Positions 15,851 to 59,962 of a stretch of DNA of 64,000 bases are shown here, in pieces. The notes below the pieces were generated by a model. The model had not been told where the DNA came from, did no database searches, and saw only the letters and a list, made by a program, of their open reading frames with translations. Origin of the DNA: Candidatus Magasanikiibacteriota bacterium. Its GTDB lineage: Bacteria > Patescibacteriota > Patescibacteriia > Magasanikbacterales > GWA2-37-8. Position 1 is the stretch's first letter; each line of letters opens with the position of its first letter. The DNA lies in the NCBI GenBank assembly GCA_030650025.1, contig JAUSEN010000005.1, positions 3,631 to 67,630 on the forward strand, written 5' to 3'. The position numbers were made by a program, and so were the translations under genes.

Positions 15851-15865
15851 AATGCCTTTGTGTTG

Positions 15866-15936
15866 TGGACCTAGCCAGAATCGGACTGGCGCTTCGGCAA
15901 TGCGAATGCCGCGTCATACCACTAGACCATAGGCCC
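15866..15936 (-). tRNA. tRNA-Ala (anticodon CGC)
   Basis: Hand fold of GGGCCTATGGTCTAGTGGTATGACGCGGCATTCGCATTGCCGAAGCGCCAGTCCGATTCTGGCTAGGTCCA. It has the G3:U70 Ala identity pair, anticodon stem CGGCA/TGCCG, loop TTCGCAT and T-loop TCCGATT. Confidence 0.75.
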
Positions 15937-15980
15937 GAAAGTTTTTTCATTATACCTGATAACTGGTTTAAATCAAGTTG

Positions 15981-16052
15981 TGGCCCCGGCGCGAATCGAA
16001 CGCACATCCAACCCTTAGGACGGGCTTGTTTTATCCATTAAACTACAGGGCC
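15981..16052 (-). tRNA. tRNA-Arg (anticodon CCU)
   Basis: Hand fold of GGCCCTGTAGTTTAATGGATAAAACAAGCCCGTCCTAAGGGTTGGATGTGCGTTCGATTCGCGCCGGGGCCA. D-stem GTTT/AAAC, anticodon loop GTCCTAA, T-loop TTCGATT. Confidence 0.7.
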
Positions 16053-16057
16053 AAATT

Positions 16058-16837
16058 TTATTTTCTTATTGGTTTTGAATATCGCCACGCCATCTCAAAT
16101 AACCCTTTAAGGATGTTGGCGAGCGCTTGGCTCTCAATTAACACGCCCATACGGTTTGGCTGCTGCAACAGCGCCAGCGCGACCCTGTTATCGTAAATAT
16201 TAATTTCACCTCCGAACTCTAAAATACCAGGGAGGTCGCTCGGTTTAATCCACCGAAAGTCGGTATATTTTTTGGAACCGCGGTAGTGGTGCATCCACTC
16301 TCTCCCGGATGGCGTATCGAGAAACAAAATCCGCTCATGAATTTTTCGTGCGCTGCGCTCGCGGTTATAACCCTTTCCCCAGGCCCTTAATTCCTCGCTA
16401 TTCCAACCCTCGATATCTAGAATAGAAAAAATTTCACCTTTGGCTTCGAGCGTCTCAGAGAAAATATTTTTGATTCCGAGCACACCCTCCTGATAACGAA
16501 TAGTTGGCTTCTCCGCAATCTTATACAATGAAACTAATTCTGGCAAGAGCCGCTCCGCCTCTTTACTACGGCGCGCCCATTGGTTCTCGCGATTTTTTAC
16601 ATACTGCAAAAGGCTCCGAGGGTGGTTGGCCGAATATTTAATTTTAGCGCCCGCGCCCGACACGCGGTCCACTAAGCCGTGGAGAGCCAGGCGCTCCAGC
16701 ACATCATAGCCGAGGGTGCGGGTGATATTGGCTTTGGCAGTAATTTCCGAAACTGTTGCTGGCCCCAATGCCAAGAGAGCTTCATAGACACGAGCTTCGC
16801 TTTCTTCGAGCCCAATATTTTTTAGATTGGTCGGCAT
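16058..16837 (-). CDS. TrmB-family transcriptional regulator, paralog 2
   Basis: N-terminus LEESEARVYEALLALGPATVSEITAKANITRTLGYDVLERLALHGLV. Confidence 0.65.
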   Translation of the reverse strand: MPTNLKNIGLEESEARVYEALLALGPATVSEITAKANITRTLGYDVLERLALHGLVDRVSGAGAKIKYSANHPRSLLQYVKNRENQWARRSKEAERLLPELVSLYKIAEKPTIRYQEGVLGIKNIFSETLEAKGEIFSILDIEGWNSEELRAWGKGYNRERSARKIHERILFLDTPSGREWMHHYRGSKKYTDFRWIKPSDLPGILEFGGEINIYDNRVALALLQQPNRMGVLIESQALANILKGLFEMAWRYSKPIRK

Positions 16838-17048
16838 ACTATAAAACAGTGTACCACTGGGTGGTGAATTGTGTCAATCTAAATTTACAATAATTATTTT
16901 ATTACTAATTTATTGCTAACATTAGAGGTTGCTTATTACTAATTTTGTGTGCTGATATTCACAATATTATTAAATTTAGCTACAGTAACACTCGTTATTC
17001 TACAACTTCGCGAATTGTCGCGAGGGAGGATTAACAGGCTATCAGGAG

Positions 17049-17789
17049 GTGGCCATGCGCAAAGTTTTTAATGAAAAGAACCACGTGCGTTTCGAGCTTC
17101 TGCGCGATTGGAGGTGGCAGAGGGACTTCGTGAGGAAGCGTACCAAAACGCAGGAAGCTATGCTGGCGCATATGAGTGAGTGCGGCAAATGCATCTTAAC
17201 CTACATGCAGTGGTTCCCGTACGAGTTCAACCGGCGTCGGGTGCTCTACCCGAAGCACGGATACCGTCGCGGCGGCCACGTCATTTGGGAGGTCCTTAAA
17301 GAGAGGGTTTATTTCGCTGACACGCTTGAGCCCGCGCAGGAAGCGCAGATCGTGGAGCATCTCTCGAAATGCGTACCGTGTCGCGCCTTCGCGGAGAGTG
17401 AAGAACAGCGACAGAGGCAGAGCGCCTCATGCCTTCGGCAGGAGCCCTCGAACATTAACCACTACGCGATTCGGATCCCGTTCGAGATCGAGGGGCGATG
17501 CTTCGAGGCGGTCGGGTTCCTCCGCAACGATGAGGCTGCGGTATACAACCGAGAGGCATTCGTCCGTACGGCTGGCGAGAACGGTGGTCCCATCAAGGAG
17601 GAAGACGAAGCATTCCTCCTGAAGCATTGCGCCCAGATTCCCTGGAAGCTGCGTCCCTACTGGCTCATCACCGCCAAAGGCACCAACCTGTGCCGACACG
17701 GCACGCATAACTACTGCGATGGGCGCAATTTTAGTTGGCAAGGCGCCATGCTCAAAGAAAGAGACCTCGTGGTGCGCCGCGTTCGATAG
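17049..17789 (+). CDS. GC-rich hypothetical protein with a zf-HC2-like (anti-sigma-factor-type HxxxCxxC) motif
   Basis: 246 aa. FADTLEPAQEAQIVEHLSKCVPCRAF matches the anti-sigma zinc-finger pattern; a CGKC motif lies upstream. GC is visibly higher than the surroundings. Confidence 0.45.
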   Translation: MAMRKVFNEKNHVRFELLRDWRWQRDFVRKRTKTQEAMLAHMSECGKCILTYMQWFPYEFNRRRVLYPKHGYRRGGHVIWEVLKERVYFADTLEPAQEAQIVEHLSKCVPCRAFAESEEQRQRQSASCLRQEPSNINHYAIRIPFEIEGRCFEAVGFLRNDEAAVYNREAFVRTAGENGGPIKEEDEAFLLKHCAQIPWKLRPYWLITAKGTNLCRHGTHNYCDGRNFSWQGAMLKERDLVVRRVR

Positions 17790-17954
17790 ACAAACGTCGC
17801 TAGTGATGCCTCAACCTCTCCTCATCAAGCCCTGGTTCTTACCTGCGCCCCAGCCGCAGTTCAAGCTCATTCGAGCCTGCTGGGAATCTCTTGTTGAATT
17901 CAAAACTTGTTGGATCCAAGAAGCGAGCCCTGAACCCTACGTGGTTCAGGGATA

Positions 17955-17991
17955 ACAAAAAATCCCTTCCAAAATTGGCTGGGATTTTTTG
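17955..17991. terminator. Bidirectional terminator-like hairpin between convergent genes
   Basis: aaaaaatcccttccaaaattggctgggatttttt, with an A-run before and a T-run after. Confidence 0.45.
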
Positions 17992-18001
17992 ATTAAAATT
18001 A

Positions 18002-18268
18002 TTATTTTTCTAATACTACTTCTAGCGCCGCTTTGACCGAAGCATTGTTCGTTGACAACAAAACCACTTTCCCCGGGCGGGCGGCCATGAGCGGGGTAAT
18101 AAATTCATCGGCCCACGACGGGGTTAAAACTTGCACGCCGCTAAAATCAATTTCTATTAGTTCAGTTTTGTCTTTTGGAAAAGTATAAGCCTCTGCGGCT
18201 AAATACGCTTCTTTGCCAGCCGGGCGCGAAGTAAGATTAAGACCGAATTTTTTTAGTTCCAGACGCAT
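18002..18268 (-). CDS. Small STAS-like (DUF4325/SpoIIAA-like) protein
   Basis: 88 aa. The ELIEIDFSGVQVLTPSWADEFI core is STAS-like. It lies 21 nt downstream of the GHKL ATPase gene on the same strand. Confidence 0.4.
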   Translation of the reverse strand: MRLELKKFGLNLTSRPAGKEAYLAAEAYTFPKDKTELIEIDFSGVQVLTPSWADEFITPLMAARPGKVVLLSTNNASVKAALEVVLEK

Positions 18269-18289
18269 ATGGTTTACTTGAGACGCGAC

Positions 18290-19054
18290 TTAAAAATTAA
18301 TTACTGCCAACGTACCGGGGATAGTAGTCGGAGATTCAAAAATAGAGAGGCCGCCAGAATTTATTTCAGCCACAGCATTGCCGCTATAATAAGTTAAGCG
18401 CCAATTATTTTCTATAATTACTTTTTTTACAAATTTTAAACCGTTACCGCGTTGTTCGGGCGCGCGGCCGGATATTTTTTCTGTAAAAGCGACCTGTAGT
18501 GCTTGCATGTGGTCGGCTAGTGCTGGCCGCACGCGCTTAAGAGTGGCGAGCACGCCTTGGCCGCGATCGGCCATGATAATTATTTTGTTGACCTCATCAA
18601 GAATATAAATTAACCCGGGGAGCCCAAGCCACTGCCCAATATTATGGTCAAACGAATTGTTACCAATTTCACCGACTACCGCTGCCATCAAAAAACCTAT
18701 ATTTTCGTTGTTTAATATTTTTTTTATAACTCCCGCCAAACGATCACAACGCGCCTGAAAAACATCACGGGTTTGACAGTGCTCTCTGGAGCCAAAAAGA
18801 TTGTTGTCGCCAGAAATGGCCCAATTTATAGAATTTATGACTAGCGCAGAGTTATTTTTCATACTATTAGCATATTCATAATACCTGACCGAAGGCGGAT
18901 TGCCAACTTTATAGATAATTTTTTTCTCTTGTAAATTTTTAAGATGCCTAAATATCCCCGAGGCATTCTTGGCCAACTGGCTAATTATGTCGTGGGCACT
19001 GATGCCGCCCTGTTTCCTAATTAAATCCACTATTTTTTGCTCTGTTGTCAACAT
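18290..19054 (-). CDS. Winged-HTH fused to a GHKL/HATPase_c-like ATPase domain
   Basis: N-terminus ISAHDIISQLAKNASGIFRHLKNLQEKKIIYKV is wHTH-like. N-box-like VVGEIGNNSFDHN, G1-like DRGQGV and G2-like GNGLKF motifs follow. Confidence 0.5.
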   Translation of the reverse strand: MLTTEQKIVDLIRKQGGISAHDIISQLAKNASGIFRHLKNLQEKKIIYKVGNPPSVRYYEYANSMKNNSALVINSINWAISGDNNLFGSREHCQTRDVFQARCDRLAGVIKKILNNENIGFLMAAVVGEIGNNSFDHNIGQWLGLPGLIYILDEVNKIIIMADRGQGVLATLKRVRPALADHMQALQVAFTEKISGRAPEQRGNGLKFVKKVIIENNWRLTYYSGNAVAEINSGGLSIFESPTTIPGTLAVINF

Positions 19055-19123
19055 AATCTATAGTATATAGTTAATTATATACTATATACTATTAACTGTC
19101 AAGGCCTGTCTGCCGGTAGGCAA

Positions 19124-19153
19124 ACAAAAACCCTGCTCATTTTGGGAGCAGGG
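19124..19153 (-). terminator. Rho-independent terminator for the 19177..20580 gene
   Basis: Minus-strand reading ccctgctcccaaaatgagcaggg followed by ttttt. Confidence 0.6.
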
Positions 19154-19176
19154 CTGTGGTGAGAATTTTTGGCTCG

Positions 19177-20580
19177 TTATTGCACGGGCTGAATGTCTGG
19201 CTTGGCTCCGCTCCGGCGGGCTATAAAATATACGATGAGGACAAAAGCGACCACGGTTATTAAAGGAAGGAAACCATAACAATAGGTATTTAACATCTGG
19301 AAGGTGCTTATTTTGGTAAAGGAGAGTGAGCCCTCGACAGTTTCAACGTTAGCATCTAAGTTCGTGTCCTGCTCGGCCAGATTGTCCAGAGTTTTCTCCT
19401 TACTATTGATCTGCGTATTATAGCTATTTAATTTTTGTTGATAGCTGGAGTTTTCGGCGGCAATCTGATTTTTTAGCGAAGCGATTTGCCGACGTAATTC
19501 GGCTTTACGTGCGCTCATCGCTGTTTCATCTTCGGGCGTAATATAATCGATCGGTACAGCATTTTCTAATTCTCGTAGTTCTACTTCTTTGGCAGCCAAT
19601 TGCTTGTTGAGCAAAGCCAGCGTGGCGTTGTGCTTTTTAGTTAGTTCATTGCGTACCTTGGTAAGTTCCGCTAAGCTGGCAGTAGTTTTGTCGGTATTTT
19701 TTTCGATAACTTGTTTTTGGGGTAACAAGTTTTGCGAAGAAATATTTTCTTTAATAAATTTAGCACCAACAAAAGTTTTGATTTCTTCTCTAAACTCGGC
19801 AAACTTGTCTTTAGGGAGAGCAAAACTAATATAGCTATTCATATCCGAGATGTTGGCATTGTCCACGCGACCACCAAACCCCCGCACCGTAATGGCGGCG
19901 CGTTCGGCTAAATCACCCGGGTTCCGTGTCTTCAGGCTGGCATAGTAACTAGTTTTTAAATATTCACGGGTATCGCGAATGTCGTTTTGGCTAGAGTAGT
20001 CGGGGGGCATAGGGTAATACTCGGCGGACTCGTCTGATTTAAACATTCCGCCTACGGCACTAACCGCTCGAGCCATGGGGTTAGATACGCGGATGTCGGA
20101 AGCACCGAGGCCAGACTCTTGCGCCATCTGAAGATTCCCGCCACCCCCAGAGTAATTGCCAGGGCTACCCGCCCCGCCGCTAGTAGTGGCAGTCACCAGT
20201 TGGTTAACTACAAAAGACCCTACACTGTAAACTGCGACCACAACGATAAGCAGGCCGCCGCCTACTTTAATAAGAGTAAAAGGCGCGACTTGGCGAGCGA
20301 TCGCATTGCCGATTTTAGTAAAAATTGATTCTCGCTGTTGTGGATTGTTTTGGGTCATATTATTTTTAACAGATGAATTAGACTGGGATAGCTTGGGGAT
20401 TAATTTAGAAAAGCTCGCGCGCGCAGCGGCGTCTTCTTGGGCGTTAACAAAAATTTCGGAGGCTCGTAACAACTCTTTTGTAGGGGTCGCATATATGCGA
20501 CCCCTACAAGGCGTATCAAATAAAGCTTCGTCTAAAGCCTCGTCCAGTTCAATTTCTAATTTTTCTTCGTTGTAATCCAT
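19177..20580 (-). CDS. Membrane-spanning anti-sigma-factor-like protein (DUF4349-like coiled-coil ectodomain, C-terminal TM)
   Basis: 467 aa. TM helix FTLIKVGGGLLIVVVAVYSVGSFVV, a coiled-coil region, and a C-terminal TM LPLITVVAFVLIVYFIARR. Its start is 2 nt after the stop of the ECF sigma gene. Confidence 0.5.
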   Translation of the reverse strand: MDYNEEKLEIELDEALDEALFDTPCRGRIYATPTKELLRASEIFVNAQEDAAARASFSKLIPKLSQSNSSVKNNMTQNNPQQRESIFTKIGNAIARQVAPFTLIKVGGGLLIVVVAVYSVGSFVVNQLVTATTSGGAGSPGNYSGGGGNLQMAQESGLGASDIRVSNPMARAVSAVGGMFKSDESAEYYPMPPDYSSQNDIRDTREYLKTSYYASLKTRNPGDLAERAAITVRGFGGRVDNANISDMNSYISFALPKDKFAEFREEIKTFVGAKFIKENISSQNLLPQKQVIEKNTDKTTASLAELTKVRNELTKKHNATLALLNKQLAAKEVELRELENAVPIDYITPEDETAMSARKAELRRQIASLKNQIAAENSSYQQKLNSYNTQINSKEKTLDNLAEQDTNLDANVETVEGSLSFTKISTFQMLNTYCYGFLPLITVVAFVLIVYFIARRSGAKPDIQPVQ

Positions 20581-20581
20581 A

Positions 20582-21124
20582 TTATTTAATTTTCTCTCTA
20601 ATCTTCTTAAGCGCTCGGCACTGAATTTGGCGCACGGCCGCTTCGCTTTTATTTATTTTTAGCGCCACCTCGCGGCTACTAAAACCCTCAATGAGGCGCA
20701 GTGTTAAAATTTCGCGCTCTTCTGAATCTACTATTTGTAACAGCTGTTCGGCGGCAATTTGTGACAGTGTGGCTTCAGGAACATCATGGCTGTCAGGCGT
20801 ATCAAAATCCTCGGGCAGGTTTACCGGGGTACGGTTTTGTTTTTGCCAAAAATCGGCCAAACAATTTCTGGCGATCGTATATAAATAGTTGAGCGGGGAG
20901 CGGTTTTGATTAGAAAATTCGGTACGCGAGTTGTAAAGGCGGAGGAATACTTGTTGGGTAATGTCTTCAGAATCAGAGAGGTGTCGTAGCCGTTTTTGGC
21001 AATAGCGAAAAATAGGCAAATAAAAAGCGCTATAAACAGCGCCAAACGCCTGCTTATCACCGCTTTTGGCGGCTTGCAAAAGCTTAACTAAATCGGCGGC
21101 TGATTCTGGCATTGATTCACCCAT
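20582..21124 (-). CDS. ECF-type sigma-70 family RNA polymerase sigma factor
   Basis: 180 aa. Region-2-like FYLPIFRYCQKRL..EDITQQVFLRLY and region-4 HTH REILTLRLIEGFSSREVALKINKSEAAVRQIQCRALKKIRE. Confidence 0.8.
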   Translation of the reverse strand: MGESMPESAADLVKLLQAAKSGDKQAFGAVYSAFYLPIFRYCQKRLRHLSDSEDITQQVFLRLYNSRTEFSNQNRSPLNYLYTIARNCLADFWQKQNRTPVNLPEDFDTPDSHDVPEATLSQIAAEQLLQIVDSEEREILTLRLIEGFSSREVALKINKSEAAVRQIQCRALKKIREKIK

Positions 21125-21427: not shown

Positions 21428-22669
21428 ATGCTCACTATTGAATTTTTAGAGCAAATAATCTTGGACCAAAAAGCGGCTTTTGAGGATAAAGGCACCGACG
21501 TGGAACGGGATATTGATTTTAAAAAATATCTTTCCGTGCCGCAAATTGTGGTTGTTTCCGGCGTCCGCCGCTGTGGCAAATCCACCCTGCTTAAACAATT
21601 TTCGCGCCGCGCCGCGCCGTATTATTATTTAAATTTTGAAGACGACCGTTTATTGAGCTTTACGGCCTCCGATTTTCAAAATTTACTTTTAGCCTTCAAA
21701 AAACAAAGGGCGGCTAAATTTGTTTATTTAGACGAGGTGCAAAATGTCATTGGTTGGGAAAGCTTCGCGCGCCGCTTGTTTGAAGCCGGGCACAAAGTAT
21801 TTATTACCGGCTCCAGCGCCAAACTATTGAGCGGCGAGCTGGCCAGCCGCCTGACCGGACGCTATCTAAAAATAGAGCTATTTCCATTTTCATTTAAAGA
21901 ATTTTTGCGCTGGCAGAGTGTCTCGACGACGGACAAGAGTTCGACCGGAGAAGCGCGTCTACTAAAACAATTTGACGAGTACGCGCGCCTGGGGGGCTTC
22001 CCGGAAATGCTAAAACTTCGTTTGCCGGAAATTGCCGTCCGTATTTATGAAGATGTGGTTTACCGCGATTTAATCGTGCGCTATAAAATTCGGGAAACGC
22101 GCGCTTTTCGCCAACTGGCCGGTTGGCTGTTTGCTAACATTGCCAAAGAAACAAACTATAATGCTTTGGCAAAAGCCCTGCAGGTAAAAAGCGTCGCGTC
22201 AATAAAAAATCATGTCGCCTTTATGGCCGAGTCATATTTGCTGTTTGAAATGGTTAAATATGATTGGTCGCTCAAGAGGCAATACATATCGGGACGAAAA
22301 TTTTATGCGATTGACGCGGGTTTGCGCGGTGAAGTGGCTTTTGTTGTTTCGGAAGATCGAGGTAGAATTTTGGAAAATATCGTATACCTGGAATTGCGCC
22401 GGCGGGGAAAGGCGCCTTATTACGCCAAAGACAAGGCGGAATGCGATTTTGTGACCGTTGAAAAAAATAAAATTACCGCCGCTATTCAGGTGGCCGATTT
22501 GTTTGATGACGGAAATCGCGAACGTGAACTGGCGGGTTTAATTGAGGCTTTGTCTTTGGGAAAATTGAAACAAGGGTTAATTTTAACTCGCAGTCAGAGC
22601 GACAATTTAATTATTAAAGGATTTAAAATTAAAGTGACCCCACTCTGGCAGTGGCTAATTGAGGAGTAA
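21428..22669 (+). CDS. AAA+ superfamily ATPase (COG1373-type with C-terminal DUF4143-like domain)
   Basis: 413 aa. Walker A SGVRRCGKST and Walker B-like FVYLDEVQ. Architecture typical of the predicted ATPase family. Confidence 0.7.
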   Translation: MLTIEFLEQIILDQKAAFEDKGTDVERDIDFKKYLSVPQIVVVSGVRRCGKSTLLKQFSRRAAPYYYLNFEDDRLLSFTASDFQNLLLAFKKQRAAKFVYLDEVQNVIGWESFARRLFEAGHKVFITGSSAKLLSGELASRLTGRYLKIELFPFSFKEFLRWQSVSTTDKSSTGEARLLKQFDEYARLGGFPEMLKLRLPEIAVRIYEDVVYRDLIVRYKIRETRAFRQLAGWLFANIAKETNYNALAKALQVKSVASIKNHVAFMAESYLLFEMVKYDWSLKRQYISGRKFYAIDAGLRGEVAFVVSEDRGRILENIVYLELRRRGKAPYYAKDKAECDFVTVEKNKITAAIQVADLFDDGNRERELAGLIEALSLGKLKQGLILTRSQSDNLIIKGFKIKVTPLWQWLIEE

Positions 22670-59838: not shown

Positions 59839-59962
59839 AGATGAGAAACTTAATAGTAAAATACAAAGTATATACTTAGTATATACTAGAAATCGGGCAA
59901 TTGTCAAGTGGCGTCACGTCAAATTATGCACCAAATTTAATGGACTCAAACGCGCCGGTAAT

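Follow-up and report, generated by a model that had tools for sequence, protein, structure and literature searches.

A conserved two-gene operon of CPR bacteria encoding an HTH–GHKL-like protein and a DUF4325 partner

Two linked open reading frames (ORFs) on the minus strand of a Candidatus Magasanikbacteria genome encode proteins of 254 and 88 amino acids (Table 1). They lie in a 64,000-nucleotide stretch of DNA, here called the window, and their base composition is that of the surrounding genome. Gene 1 encodes a winged helix-turn-helix (wHTH) fused to a GHKL-like domain, and gene 2 encodes a small DUF4325 protein. A GC-rich zf-HC2 ORF (17049-17789, plus strand) converges on the pair. Upstream, on the same strand as the pair, are an ECF sigma factor gene (20582-21124) and an adjoining ORF for a 467-aa putative anti-sigma factor. 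A terminator-like hairpin ends the 467-aa gene and forms the 5′ boundary of a two-gene operon, which is closed by two further hairpins; the first of these has an A-run/U-run stem in the style of bidirectional terminators. Because this terminator and the pair's own promoter intervene, the ECF sigma gene is a transcription unit separate from the pair.

The predicted promoter of the operon, TTGACA-17 nt-TATAAT, agrees with the consensus at 12 of 12 positions, and TTGACA also precedes most wHTH-type orthologues (about 16 of the 20 loci listed). An operator-like inverted repeat covers the promoter spacer, the -10 hexamer and the start-site region, ending 5 nt before the ATG. The exact 12-mer of its arm occurs in the 64 kb at this site only. 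A near-match at 59865-59889 was rejected as an operator, being a different palindrome.

Table 1. Features of the gene pair, with positions counted from the first letter of the window
Feature	Position	Strand	Remarks
Gene 1, 254-aa wHTH + GHKL-like protein	18290..19054	-	2434 homologues, length about 255 aa
Winged helix-turn-helix domain, residues 1-60	18875..19054	-	Pfam HTH_24, AF2 topology, PDB profile matches
Divergent GHKL (Bergerat-fold, SpoIIAB/RsbW-like) ATP-binding domain, residues 62-254	18293..18871	-	
N-box E129-I-G-N-N133-S-F-D136-H137-N138, residues 129-138	18641..18670	-	Invariant, aligned to SpoIIAB
G1 box D163-R-G-Q-G167	18554..18568	-	Invariant; aligned to SpoIIAB D81-E-G-x-G
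ATP-lid-like loop (residues 192-204) and G2 box R202-G-N-G-L-K207	18434..18481	-	
Intergenic spacer between gene 1 and gene 2, 21 nt	18269..18289	-	
Gene 2, 88-aa DUF4325 (STAS-like) partner protein	18002..18268	-	
Ser51 codon in P-S-W-A-D-E-F motif, candidate phospho-acceptor	18116..18118	-	Invariant in 147/147 sequences
Operon promoter, -35 hexamer TTGACA	19097..19102	-	
-10 hexamer TATAAT of the operon promoter	19074..19079	-	
Operator-like perfect 12-bp inverted repeat, ATAGTATATAGT-N9-ACTATATACTAT	19060..19092	.	Arms 19081-19092 and 19060-19071
Intrinsic-terminator-like hairpin and T-run	19129..19155	-	10-bp stem, 6 GC pairs
Two hairpins closing the operon	17928..17995	-	MFE -33.6 kcal/mol, z = -6.2 vs shuffles

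The two encoded proteins

A preliminary description of this locus had reported two ORFs 21 nt apart and the motifs EIGNNSFDHN, DRGQGV and GNGLKF, and its coordinates and residues are exact. It had read the larger product as a winged HTH followed by a GHKL-ATPase-like domain and the smaller as a STAS/DUF4325-like protein, and all three readings hold up. At the N-terminus, Pfam HTH_24 matches residues 3-47 of the 254-aa protein (22.5 bits, cutoff 21.9) and 38 of the 41 family members, with a best E-value of 1.6e-10. The AF2 model places helices at residues 4-15, 20-27 and 31-43 and strands at 47-50 and 57-60, the alpha1-alpha2-alpha3-beta-beta topology of a winged domain. Profile matches in the PDB are to wHTH/Z-alpha and MarR domains, and the closest sequence matches are to the Z-alpha domain of PKZ (profile E 3.6e-5; Foldseek TMt 0.85). 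In ADAR1 and PKZ, Z-alpha contacts Z-DNA through an Asn and a Tyr that are conserved in its recognition helix. The 254-aa protein has F35 and K39 in place of these residues, which speaks against a Z-alpha identity; the Pro-Pro wing of Z-alpha is retained.

The C-terminal part of the protein is established, at the level of profile-profile comparison, as a GHKL homologue through a chain of two alignments. In hhalign, HATPase_c_2-like paralogues align on one side with the family (98.7%, E 1.7e-16) and on the other with 120 SpoIIAB/RsbW sequences (93.5%, E 2.4e-7), against P 0.13-0.28 in reversed controls. Direct alignment of the family with SpoIIAB/RsbW brings the N-box, G1 and G2 motifs into register (P 0.0089). 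E129, N133 and H137 of the N-box (E-x3-N-x3-H) align to SpoIIAB E46, N50 and H54, and the invariant G203-N-G205 to G107-x-G109. Against single SpoIIAB or RsbW sequences, hhalign gave no significant alignment (E 0.6 and 0.059). EIGNNSFDHN, DRGQGV (residues 163-168) and GNGLKF (203-208) are invariant or nearly so among the 41 family members; across 103 representatives (50% identity clusters) the conservation of these N-box, G1 and G2 motifs is still 90% or more. The AF2 model is least confident at the lid-like residues 192-204, with a block mean pLDDT of 63 and values below 50 at 198-200.

Searches against standard families place this domain below their thresholds. The window protein has no GHKL match in Pfam or NCBIfam, and none of the 103 representatives reaches the Pfam GHKL gathering threshold. 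Sub-threshold GHKL matches are found in 11 of the 41 family members. Among the representatives, HATPase_c_2 appears below threshold in 26 of 103 (best E 6e-4) and HATPase_c in 19 of 103 (best E 4e-5), and these two are the only recurrent non-HTH families. phmmer and hmmsearch against the PDB recovered the wHTH and left the GHKL part unmatched, and an exhaustive phmmer search over 1.84 billion representatives recruited zero canonical GHKL proteins. In a Foldseek comparison with the PDB, Hsp90-family GHKL N-domains make up 44 of the best 50 matches to the large protein, with probabilities up to 1.0, at low TM-scores (0.25-0.32) and E-values of only about 1e-3.

The 88-aa protein matches a single Pfam family, DUF4325 (PF14213; 24.1 bits, cutoff 23), which is also assigned in precomputed annotation to most of its homologues. 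The small ORF is well conserved: there are 400 such homologues, with a mean column identity of 57-69% in alignments. hhalign connects the family to canonical DUF4325 (87.9%, E 3.2e-6), and the best structural matches in BFVD are phage DUF4325 models (probability 0.95-1.0). The AF2 model (pLDDT 96.7) has a beta-alpha-beta-alpha-beta-alpha topology. STAS domains account for 12 of the best 50 Foldseek matches in the PDB, and 3t6o_B, an anti-sigma antagonist, gives the highest TMq (0.65, with an rmsd of 3.7 A); every E-value is at least 0.23, which is not significant. Ser51 caps the N-terminus of helix 50-63 (alpha2) in the model, and a serine is kept at this position in paralogous canonical DUF4325 proteins. 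This invariant serine could be conserved for structural reasons alone. Alignment of the 147-sequence family with three PDB SpoIIAA proteins yielded no sequence similarity (hhalign P 0.26-0.9), and homology to SpoIIAA was rejected at the sequence level; canonical DUF4325 paralogues reach P 0.007 against SpoIIAA. In non-significant alignments, the position of Ser51 relative to SpoIIAA Ser58 varies by one or more residues.

Conservation of the pair and exchange of its DNA-binding domain

The preliminary description had treated the two genes as a pair, and comparison with relatives bears this out: the DUF4325 gene lies directly downstream of the large gene in 85 of 85 loci. The distance between them is usually 0-12 nt in orthologues, and in 17 of the 85 loci the genes overlap by 4 nt. 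At least 579 species genomes, nearly all with a CPR label, contain the pair, which forms a compact, CPR-restricted family of 305 representatives at 50% identity. The same genomes also carry a paralogous, independent GHKL + DUF4325 pair.

No third gene is conserved beside the pair within 4 kb on either side in the 85 loci, and this holds for sigma factor genes over the same range and for PP2C-type phosphatase genes. The commonest recurrent neighbour is a TrmB-like regulator (12 of 85 loci), and the flanking genes are mostly of housekeeping type, among them RecA, FtsK, S20 and DNA polymerase III delta. The convergent zf-HC2 gene and the upstream ECF sigma/anti-sigma pair, to which the preliminary description had drawn attention, are present in the window and are not conserved as neighbours of the pair. 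A functional link of the pair to the ECF sigma factor, the 467-aa putative anti-sigma factor or zf-HC2 was rejected on this ground. Since no third gene is conserved, the ECF sigma and zf-HC2 genes beside the pair are incidental.

The large protein's DNA-binding domain differs by lineage and may be a wHTH, a MerR-type domain, an Xre-type domain or none. About 17 of the 85 loci are without any such domain, so that in some lineages the core pair must act through something other than DNA binding; a separate HTH gene is not evident upstream of these variants. A compact family confined to CPR, with DNA-binding domains of lineage-specific type, points to vertical inheritance.

The repeats at the promoter change with the domain. 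ATAGTnTA inverted repeats stand upstream of wHTH-type genes at 19 of 19 loci (the window and 18 orthologous loci), at a density of 36/kb against a background of 0.14/kb, an enrichment of about 250-fold. At MerR-type loci their place is taken by three direct repeats of TGCATAGATT in helical phase (14.3/kb against 0.029/kb), and neither kind of repeat is found in 16 of 17 HTH-less loci. Operator clusters elsewhere were absent from the window and from the 4-kb flanks on either side of 49 loci. Every motif cluster found sits at the module's own promoter, which is the only predicted target identified. Operator repeats therefore co-vary with DNA-binding-domain type, a result demonstrated computationally, as are the domain identities and the strict gene linkage. 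The preliminary description had proposed that a kinase-like domain fused to a DNA-binding domain makes a direct transcription switch. That idea gains independent support from this co-variation; the kinase and partner-switch chemistry that it also invoked is treated below as a proposal.

A possible partner switch and its alternatives

The reading preferred here, for which belief and doubt are about evenly balanced, is that the pair forms a self-contained, autoregulated operon acting as a sigma-factor-independent partner switch, with the kinase-like protein as its transcription factor. The wHTH of the gene 1 protein would bind the ATAGTnTA inverted repeats at its own sigma-70 promoter, and autoregulation through this HTH is very probable. 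Because the repeats cover the spacer, the -10 hexamer and the start site, repression is the likelier effect on this promoter, and is rated somewhat above activation. The DUF4325 protein would bind the GHKL domain of the gene 1 protein, and physical contact between the two proteins is probable. By analogy with the action of SpoIIAB on SpoIIAA Ser58, the ATP-bound GHKL domain may phosphorylate its partner at Ser51 and then release it; this phosphotransfer step is plausible, though somewhat less likely than not. The unphosphorylated partner would bind the HTH-GHKL protein in its ADP or apo form and alter that protein's oligomeric state or geometry, and operator occupancy would change as a result. 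What serves as an anti-sigma kinase in classical partner-switching systems would in this way be wired straight to DNA.

A second account retains the architecture and the autoregulation and dispenses with phosphotransfer. ATP would switch the conformation or dimerisation of the GHKL domain, in the manner of the GHKL ATPases Hsp90, MutL and MORC, and the DUF4325 protein would be a stoichiometric, nucleotide-dependent co-repressor or anti-repressor. The N-box has D136 at position +7 (E-x3-N-x2-D), beside H137, the pattern of GHL ATPases, and the best structural matches are to Hsp90-family ATPase domains, not kinases. The lack of a linked phosphatase gene and a partner that bears no sequence similarity to the phosphorylatable SpoIIAA fit this account as well. 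The profile affinity of the domain is nevertheless to HATPase_c_2, the group of the SpoIIAB/RsbW kinases, and not to ATPase families. GHL ATPases obtain their catalytic lysine from a transducer domain, whereas this protein stops after the Bergerat fold and has none to supply it. The serine at the alpha2 N-cap, where STAS domains have their phospho-site, is moreover invariant even in paralogous DUF4325 proteins. A switch without phosphotransfer is an unlikely explanation, although one that retains appreciable weight.

Two other explanations assign the pair a different purpose. In one, it is a toxin-antitoxin-like or phage-defence cassette with one toxic or effector product, and the HTH serves merely for conditional autorepression, which is typical of type II toxin-antitoxin operons. 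Two overlapping or closely spaced genes with an operator over their own promoter would suit such a cassette, as would the variable genomic context, with AbiEii and Fic genes near some loci, and the DUF4325 proteins known in phages and prophages. DUF4325 genes are also reported to be transcriptionally coupled to a VapC/PIN subgroup (PMC5499597), which likewise favours it. PADLOC, however, gave only wHTH-level matches (CasR/Csa3 HTH) and left the GHKL part and the small protein unmatched, zero relatives were found in 2.9 million viral contigs, and phage and plasmid collections contained no significant matches. On these negative searches a defence or mobile-element origin was rejected. The vertical inheritance suggested by a compact CPR-restricted family with lineage-specific DNA-binding domains, the very high sequence conservation of the small protein, the mostly housekeeping flanks and the unremarkable base composition also argue against a cassette, which is improbable. 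The other explanation, regarded as marginally more improbable still, makes the GHKL protein a classical anti-sigma factor. It would sequester a sigma factor whose gene lies elsewhere and be counteracted by the DUF4325 protein, with an HTH that only autoregulates the operon. The domain is homologous to SpoIIAB/RsbW, the HTH-less variants look like a plain SpoIIAB-SpoIIAA pair, and an ECF sigma gene lies upstream in the window. That gene, however, is beyond a terminator and the pair's own promoter and already has its adjacent 467-aa putative anti-sigma partner, and the surroundings of the pair in the 85 loci contain no conserved sigma gene. Three independent fusions to different DNA-binding domains also speak against an anti-sigma role, since they suggest that DNA binding is the main output.

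The pair, then, is conserved across CPR and previously undescribed, and appears to control its own promoter; a full-text literature search found no description of the module and DUF4325 mentioned, incidentally, in three papers only. CPR/Patescibacteria have tiny genomes with very few recognisable regulators, and to our knowledge their signalling is almost wholly uncharacterised. The module offers a testable logic, with a defined operator, a protein partner and catalytic residues. If the partner-switch reading is right, partner switching reaches beyond sigma control to the direct control of DNA binding, and DUF4325, a domain also found in phages and beside PIN toxins, receives a function. The exchange of DNA-binding domain and operator together, at least three times, is a natural experiment in modularity, and the resulting pairs could serve as orthogonal parts for genetics in CPR or heterologous hosts. 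In its fullest form the proposal is tentative: the family would be the founding case of sigma-independent partner switching, with a SpoIIAB/RsbW-like serine kinase as the transcription factor and a Ser51-phosphorylated DUF4325 protein that toggles operator binding. As a signalling device of the regulator-poor CPR/Patescibacteria it would be ancestral, passed on vertically and perhaps of major importance. It would also provide DUF4325 with its first functional assignment and account for the wider HATPase_c_2-like + DUF4325 gene pairs of bacteria and phages.

Comparison with known systems

The nearest models are the SpoIIAB-SpoIIAA and RsbW-RsbV systems, in which the cognate sigma target is usually encoded in the same operon and a PP2C phosphatase is the usual third component. 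The CPR pair resembles them in its adjacent genes, in combining a GHKL domain, a small single domain in those systems, with a STAS-like protein (about 90-115 aa), and in the E-x3-N-x3-H, D-x-G-x-G and G-x-G motifs, the homology being traced by transitive profile comparison. Its partner, like SpoIIAA and RsbV, has a conserved Ser at the helix alpha-2 N-cap. Unlike SpoIIAB and RsbW, the CPR kinase-like protein has no sigma target and bears its own wHTH, MerR-type or Xre-type domain; its GHKL domain has diverged too far to reach Pfam thresholds, and its N-box helix is preceded by about 55 extra residues (62-116, with helices at 70-81 and 96-114). The partner belongs to DUF4325 and not to the PF01740 STAS family of SpoIIAA and RsbV, and a PP2C phosphatase is not linked to the pair.

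Partner switching with a non-sigma output is known from Pseudomonas SiaA/B/C/D and HptB-HsbR-HsbA and from Bordetella BtrU/V/W, which combine a GHKL-type kinase with a STAS-like substrate. In these systems the STAS-like partner binds another protein that provides the output, for example a diguanylate cyclase or a secretion regulator. In the CPR pair, by contrast, the output HTH is fused to the kinase-like protein, and no phosphatase belongs to the conserved module. A closer comparison is provided by the CPR paralogues (L047, L056 and L022), in which an HATPase_c_2-like protein of about 290-320 aa is paired with DUF4325. They share the gene order, the 4-nt overlap, the GHKL motifs and the 'S-[FW]' motif of DUF4325. 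They differ in having, in place of an HTH, about 110 unrelated residues at the N-terminus, as well as a C-terminal tail and far better Pfam matches (DUF4325 E 1e-11 to 1e-14). No characterisation of these paralogue pairs was found in the literature searched.

In its regulatory layout the pair also recalls one-component transcription factors and type II antitoxins, with an HTH protein, repeats over its own promoter and an exchangeable DNA-binding domain. Unlike in one-component transcription factors, the place of the small-molecule domain as 'sensor' is taken by an ATP-binding GHKL kinase-like domain together with a dedicated protein partner.

Identity of the winged-HTH–GHKL protein

The window, which derives from a Candidatus Magasanikbacteria (CPR/Patescibacteria) genome, carries two ORFs 21 nt apart whose products are identical to NCBI entries: the 254-aa protein (100% identity) to a 'winged helix-turn-helix transcriptional regulator', and the 88-aa protein to a 'DUF4325 domain-containing protein'. 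The arrangement in the preliminary description was found as claimed. The N-terminal winged HTH (wHTH) is recognized by Pfam as HTH_24 at residues 3-47 (22.5 bits against a cutoff of 21.9), and the quoted C-terminal motifs, E129-I-G-N-N-S-F-D-H-N138, D163-R-G-Q-G167 and R202-G-N-G-L-K207, are invariant in the GHKL-like family. Among solved structures, the wHTH comes nearest to the Z-alpha domains of fish PKZ (profile E 3.6e-5; Foldseek TMt 0.85), with which it shares a Pro-Pro wing. Z-alpha domains contact Z-DNA through Asn and Tyr; F35 and K39 stand in their place here, and therefore Z-DNA binding is not expected.

Features of the window and of homologous or related loci
Feature	Sequence	Position	Strand	Basis
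254-aa ORF (wHTH + GHKL-like)	window	18290-19054	-	ORF call
wHTH, residues 1-60	window	18875-19054
88-aa ORF (DUF4325)	window	18002-18268	-	ORF call
Upstream terminator bounding the operon	window	19155-19129	-
ECF sigma factor, then 467-aa ORF	window	20582-21124 and 19177-20580	-
GC-rich region	window	17000-17999
246-aa ORF (zf-HC2)	window	17049-17789	+
TrmB-family regulator	window	16058-16837	-
TrmB-family regulator	L002 (locus with the pair)	1223-1957
tRNA-Ala(CGC) and tRNA-Arg(CCT)	window	15865-15936 and 15980-16052	-
AAA_14 + DUF4143 ATPase, 413 aa	window	21428-22669	+	PADLOC candidate defence model PDC-S01, E 5e-104
Decamer pair	window	59865-59889
Paralogous pair	L047 (CPR locus)	1295-2538
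Paralogous pair	L056 (CPR locus)	1349-2598	-
Paralogous pair	L022 (CPR locus)	16-975
HATPase_c_2-like gene, then 192-aa wHTH gene	L086 (Cytobacillus plasmid NZ_CP097350.1)	2605-4119
STAS + HATPase_c gene	L087 (Gordonia phage Phishy)	1455-2306

Pfam returns no GHKL match on the 254-aa protein, and PDB sequence and profile searches matched its wHTH and not its GHKL domain. None of its 305 phmmer matches, drawn from 1.84 billion representatives, is a canonical kinase, and all are at most 320 aa long. The domain is unannotated because it lies below curated Pfam thresholds: sub-threshold matches to HATPase_c_2 occur in 26 of 103 family representatives and to HATPase_c in 19 (best E 4e-5), these being the sole recurring non-HTH families, and GHKL-type matches of this kind occur in 11 of 41 members of a smaller set. 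Distant paralogues of 212-321 aa in some CPR loci match both the family HMM (1e-9 to 4e-6) and HATPase_c_2 or HATPase_c (about 1e-4 to 1e-3). By hhalign, the family C-terminal profile aligns with these paralogues at 98.7% probability (E 1.7e-16, 131 columns), and the paralogues align with a SpoIIAB/RsbW profile of 120 sequences, every one annotated PF13581+PF02518, at 93.5% (E 2.4e-7); reversed-sequence controls give P 0.13-0.28. Direct comparison of the family with the SpoIIAB/RsbW profile gives P 0.0089, with N-box, G1 and G2 in register: E129/N133 pair with SpoIIAB E46/N50, D163-x-G-x-G with D81-x-G-x-G, and G203-x-G205 with G107-x-G109, while H137 aligns with SpoIIAB H54. The AF2 model (pLDDT 89.6) has its elements in Bergerat order, with lowest confidence in the lid-like stretch 192-204. 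Hsp90/Grp94/TRAP1 N-domains account for 44 of its 50 top Foldseek PDB matches, at probability up to 1.0 but with low TM-scores (0.24-0.32, for a two-domain query) and E-values of only about 1e-3. It is concluded that the C-terminal domain, described earlier as GHKL-ATPase-like, is a highly divergent GHKL superfamily member nearest the SpoIIAB/RsbW (HATPase_c_2) branch; its ATP-site motifs are intact, and the nucleotide-binding site is predicted to be so.

The DUF4325 partner

The 88-aa ORF matches DUF4325, a 'STAS-like domain of unknown function' (Pfam, 24.1 bits against a cutoff of 23), and hhalign joins its family to canonical DUF4325 (E 3.2e-6). The same method gives no link to SpoIIAA, and membership of the SpoIIAA/RsbV sequence family is rejected on that ground. 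The AF2 model (pLDDT 96.7) has the topology beta(2-4)-alpha(15-28)-beta(38-41)-alpha(50-63)-beta(68-70)-alpha(76-87). Among viral structure models its top matches are phage DUF4325 proteins (probability 0.95-1.0). Foldseek against the PDB returned no significant E-value; STAS domains, including RsbS, the RsbV homologue TM1442, and stressosome and SLC26/SulP STAS, make up 12 of the top 50 of these non-significant matches, and the anti-sigma-factor antagonist 3t6o gives the highest TM-score (0.65, rmsd 3.7 A). The protein is a genuine DUF4325 whose fold is probably STAS-like, as first proposed, and its family is very conserved: R15, F42, P50, S51, E55 and N75 are each missing from no more than one of 147 sequences. 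Ser51, kept even in paralogous DUF4325 proteins ('S-[FW]'), caps the N-terminus of the second long helix in the model, a topological position that would correspond to the STAS phospho-serine, with the residue-level alignment register not fixed.

Linkage, DNA-binding domains and operators

At least 579 genomes encode a relative (scan of one genome per species), among them Magasanik-, Roizman-, Woese-, Gottesman-, Moran-, Peregrini- and Saccharibacteria, Kazan and others. Nearly all carry a CPR label; among those listed, two are assigned to Elusimicrobia, and some TPA MAGs go under names like 'uncultured Gammaproteobacteria' or 'Pseudomonadales', assignments suspected to be unreliable. Linkage is strict: a DUF4325-family ORF lies directly 3′ of the GHKL-like gene in 85 of 85 loci examined, mostly at 0-12 nt and with a 4-nt overlap in 17. 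Clustering of all flanking ORFs in these loci found no conserved third gene, and no sigma factor, phosphatase or zf-HC2 gene recurs beside the pair. Since there is no such third gene, and since the window operon is enclosed between an upstream terminator and two strong hairpins (z = -6.2) at its 3′ end, the ECF sigma, 467-aa and zf-HC2 genes are incidental neighbours; the context described earlier is present in the window but not conserved.

The ECF gene (Sigma70_r2/r4) precedes the 467-aa ORF, which has coiled-coil and hydrophobic stretches, weak SMC-type matches at residues ~260-420 and a weak DUF4349 match; together they are a probable sigma/anti-sigma pair whose own transcription unit ends at the same terminator. 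Convergent with the operon is a gene for a zf-HC2 anti-sigma-type zinc finger (PF13490, 25.3 bits), in a region whose GC content (0.54-0.59 against ~0.43 around) suggests foreign origin. The commonest neighbour, in 12 of 85 loci, is a TrmB-like regulator; such genes (~250 aa), about 1-2 kb or less from the pair in the window, L002 and others, probably reflect synteny within lineages and not a functional link. ORFs listed over the two tRNA genes are spurious, being artefacts of those genes.

In lineages other than Magasanikbacteria, this GHKL domain is joined to other DNA-binding domains: a MerR-type HTH (PF00376/PF13411, E 1e-8 to 1e-11) or, in three representatives, an Xre-type HTH_3. The N-terminal domain is absent in about 17 of 85 loci, with no separate HTH gene evident upstream. 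Given these HTH-less variants, the conserved switch is the GHKL-DUF4325 core; it acts most commonly through DNA binding, and other outputs exist.

Upstream repeats change with the DNA-binding domain. In the window, a perfect 12-bp inverted repeat, ATAGTATATAGT-N9-ACTATATACTAT, overlaps a perfect TTGACA-17-TATAAT promoter and ends 5 nt 5′ of the ATG; its 12-mer has no other copy in the 64 kb. In the window plus 18 wHTH-type orthologues (protein identity about 38-66%), the 19 x 70 nt upstream hold 48 copies of ATAGTnTA or its complement (36 per kb versus 0.14 elsewhere), and 19 of 19 loci have the motif; the usual layout is a tandem set spaced 7 nt apart, then copies in inverted orientation. MerR-type loci instead have TGCATAGATT as a direct repeat in two or three copies (variants TGTATAGATT, TGGGTAGATT; 14.3 versus 0.029 per kb), which in most three-copy loci begin at x, x+10 and x+30, over the -35, the spacer and the post -10 region. 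Both motifs are absent from 16 of 17 HTH-less loci, and a divergent wHTH member (L066) has a distinct perfect palindrome, ATTGTAGTCAAT/ATTGACTACAAT. Throughout these loci and the whole window, all motif clusters sit at the promoter of the module itself. That repeats and DNA-binding domain co-vary across these three classes of loci is strong evidence, from comparison, that the fused HTH would bind its own promoter, and fits the earlier idea of a direct transcription switch. Autoregulation is accordingly rated highly probable from sequence comparison; as the putative sites cover the core promoter, repression is its likeliest form, a view held with somewhat better than even confidence. Elsewhere in the window, in apparently intergenic DNA, the self-complementary decamer AGTATATACT stands twice in tandem (AAAGTATATACTTAGTATATACTAG); this pair resembles ATAGTnTA, yet is a different motif, and could be a site for another regulator.

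A predicted partner switch and its relatives

The pair is predicted, at roughly even odds, to be a sigma-independent partner switch. Like SpoIIAB, the GHKL domain would bind the STAS-like partner and phosphorylate its Ser51 using ATP; the phosphorylation state would set whether the partner remains bound, and binding would alter the DNA-binding competence of the HTH-GHKL protein, so that ATP and partner may jointly control operator occupancy. Physical interaction of the two proteins is likely; phosphotransfer to Ser51 is more tentative, falling somewhat short of an even chance. The main rival keeps the same architecture and makes the GHKL domain a nucleotide-driven switch without phosphotransfer, which is rather unlikely. 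That the pair is a toxin-antitoxin or defence system is very improbable: PADLOC, viral-contig, phage and plasmid searches were all negative, the distribution is lineage-coherent and limited to CPR, and the neighbours are housekeeping genes. A classical anti-sigma role for the GHKL protein is marginally less probable still, as no sigma factor is linked and HTH fusions arose three times independently.

The module belongs to a wider, likewise uncharacterised class of HATPase_c_2-like + DUF4325 pairs. At L047, L056 and L022, in three CPR genomes, a paralogous pair without an HTH (320-aa HATPase_c_2-like and ~95-aa DUF4325 proteins, 4-nt overlap) is found no more than 3 kb from the HTH-type pair, which suggests possible cross-talk between two GHKL-DUF4325 switches. 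Other arrangements of the three parts surfaced as weak, non-significant tblastn matches: a plasmid HATPase_c_2-like 'ATP-binding protein' followed by a protein with a C-terminal wHTH (L086), and a single-chain phage protein with STAS and HATPase_c (L087). No description of the module was found in the searchable literature, where DUF4325 is mentioned in three papers, each time incidentally, for instance a VapC/PIN subgroup coupled to DUF4325 (PMC5499597) and a Francisella prophage that includes it (PMC7924643).

For the specialist, the direct kinase-HTH fusion, CPR-wide conservation and co-swapped operators are notable, and the partner-switch hypothesis is immediately testable. The module appears to be of partner-switching type, with an HTH output domain fused to the kinase-like component. 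SpoIIAB-SpoIIAA and RsbW-RsbV, the closest characterised systems, resemble it in outline; unlike them, it has no linked sigma target or PP2C, its partner is not a PF01740 STAS protein, and its GHKL domain falls under Pfam thresholds.
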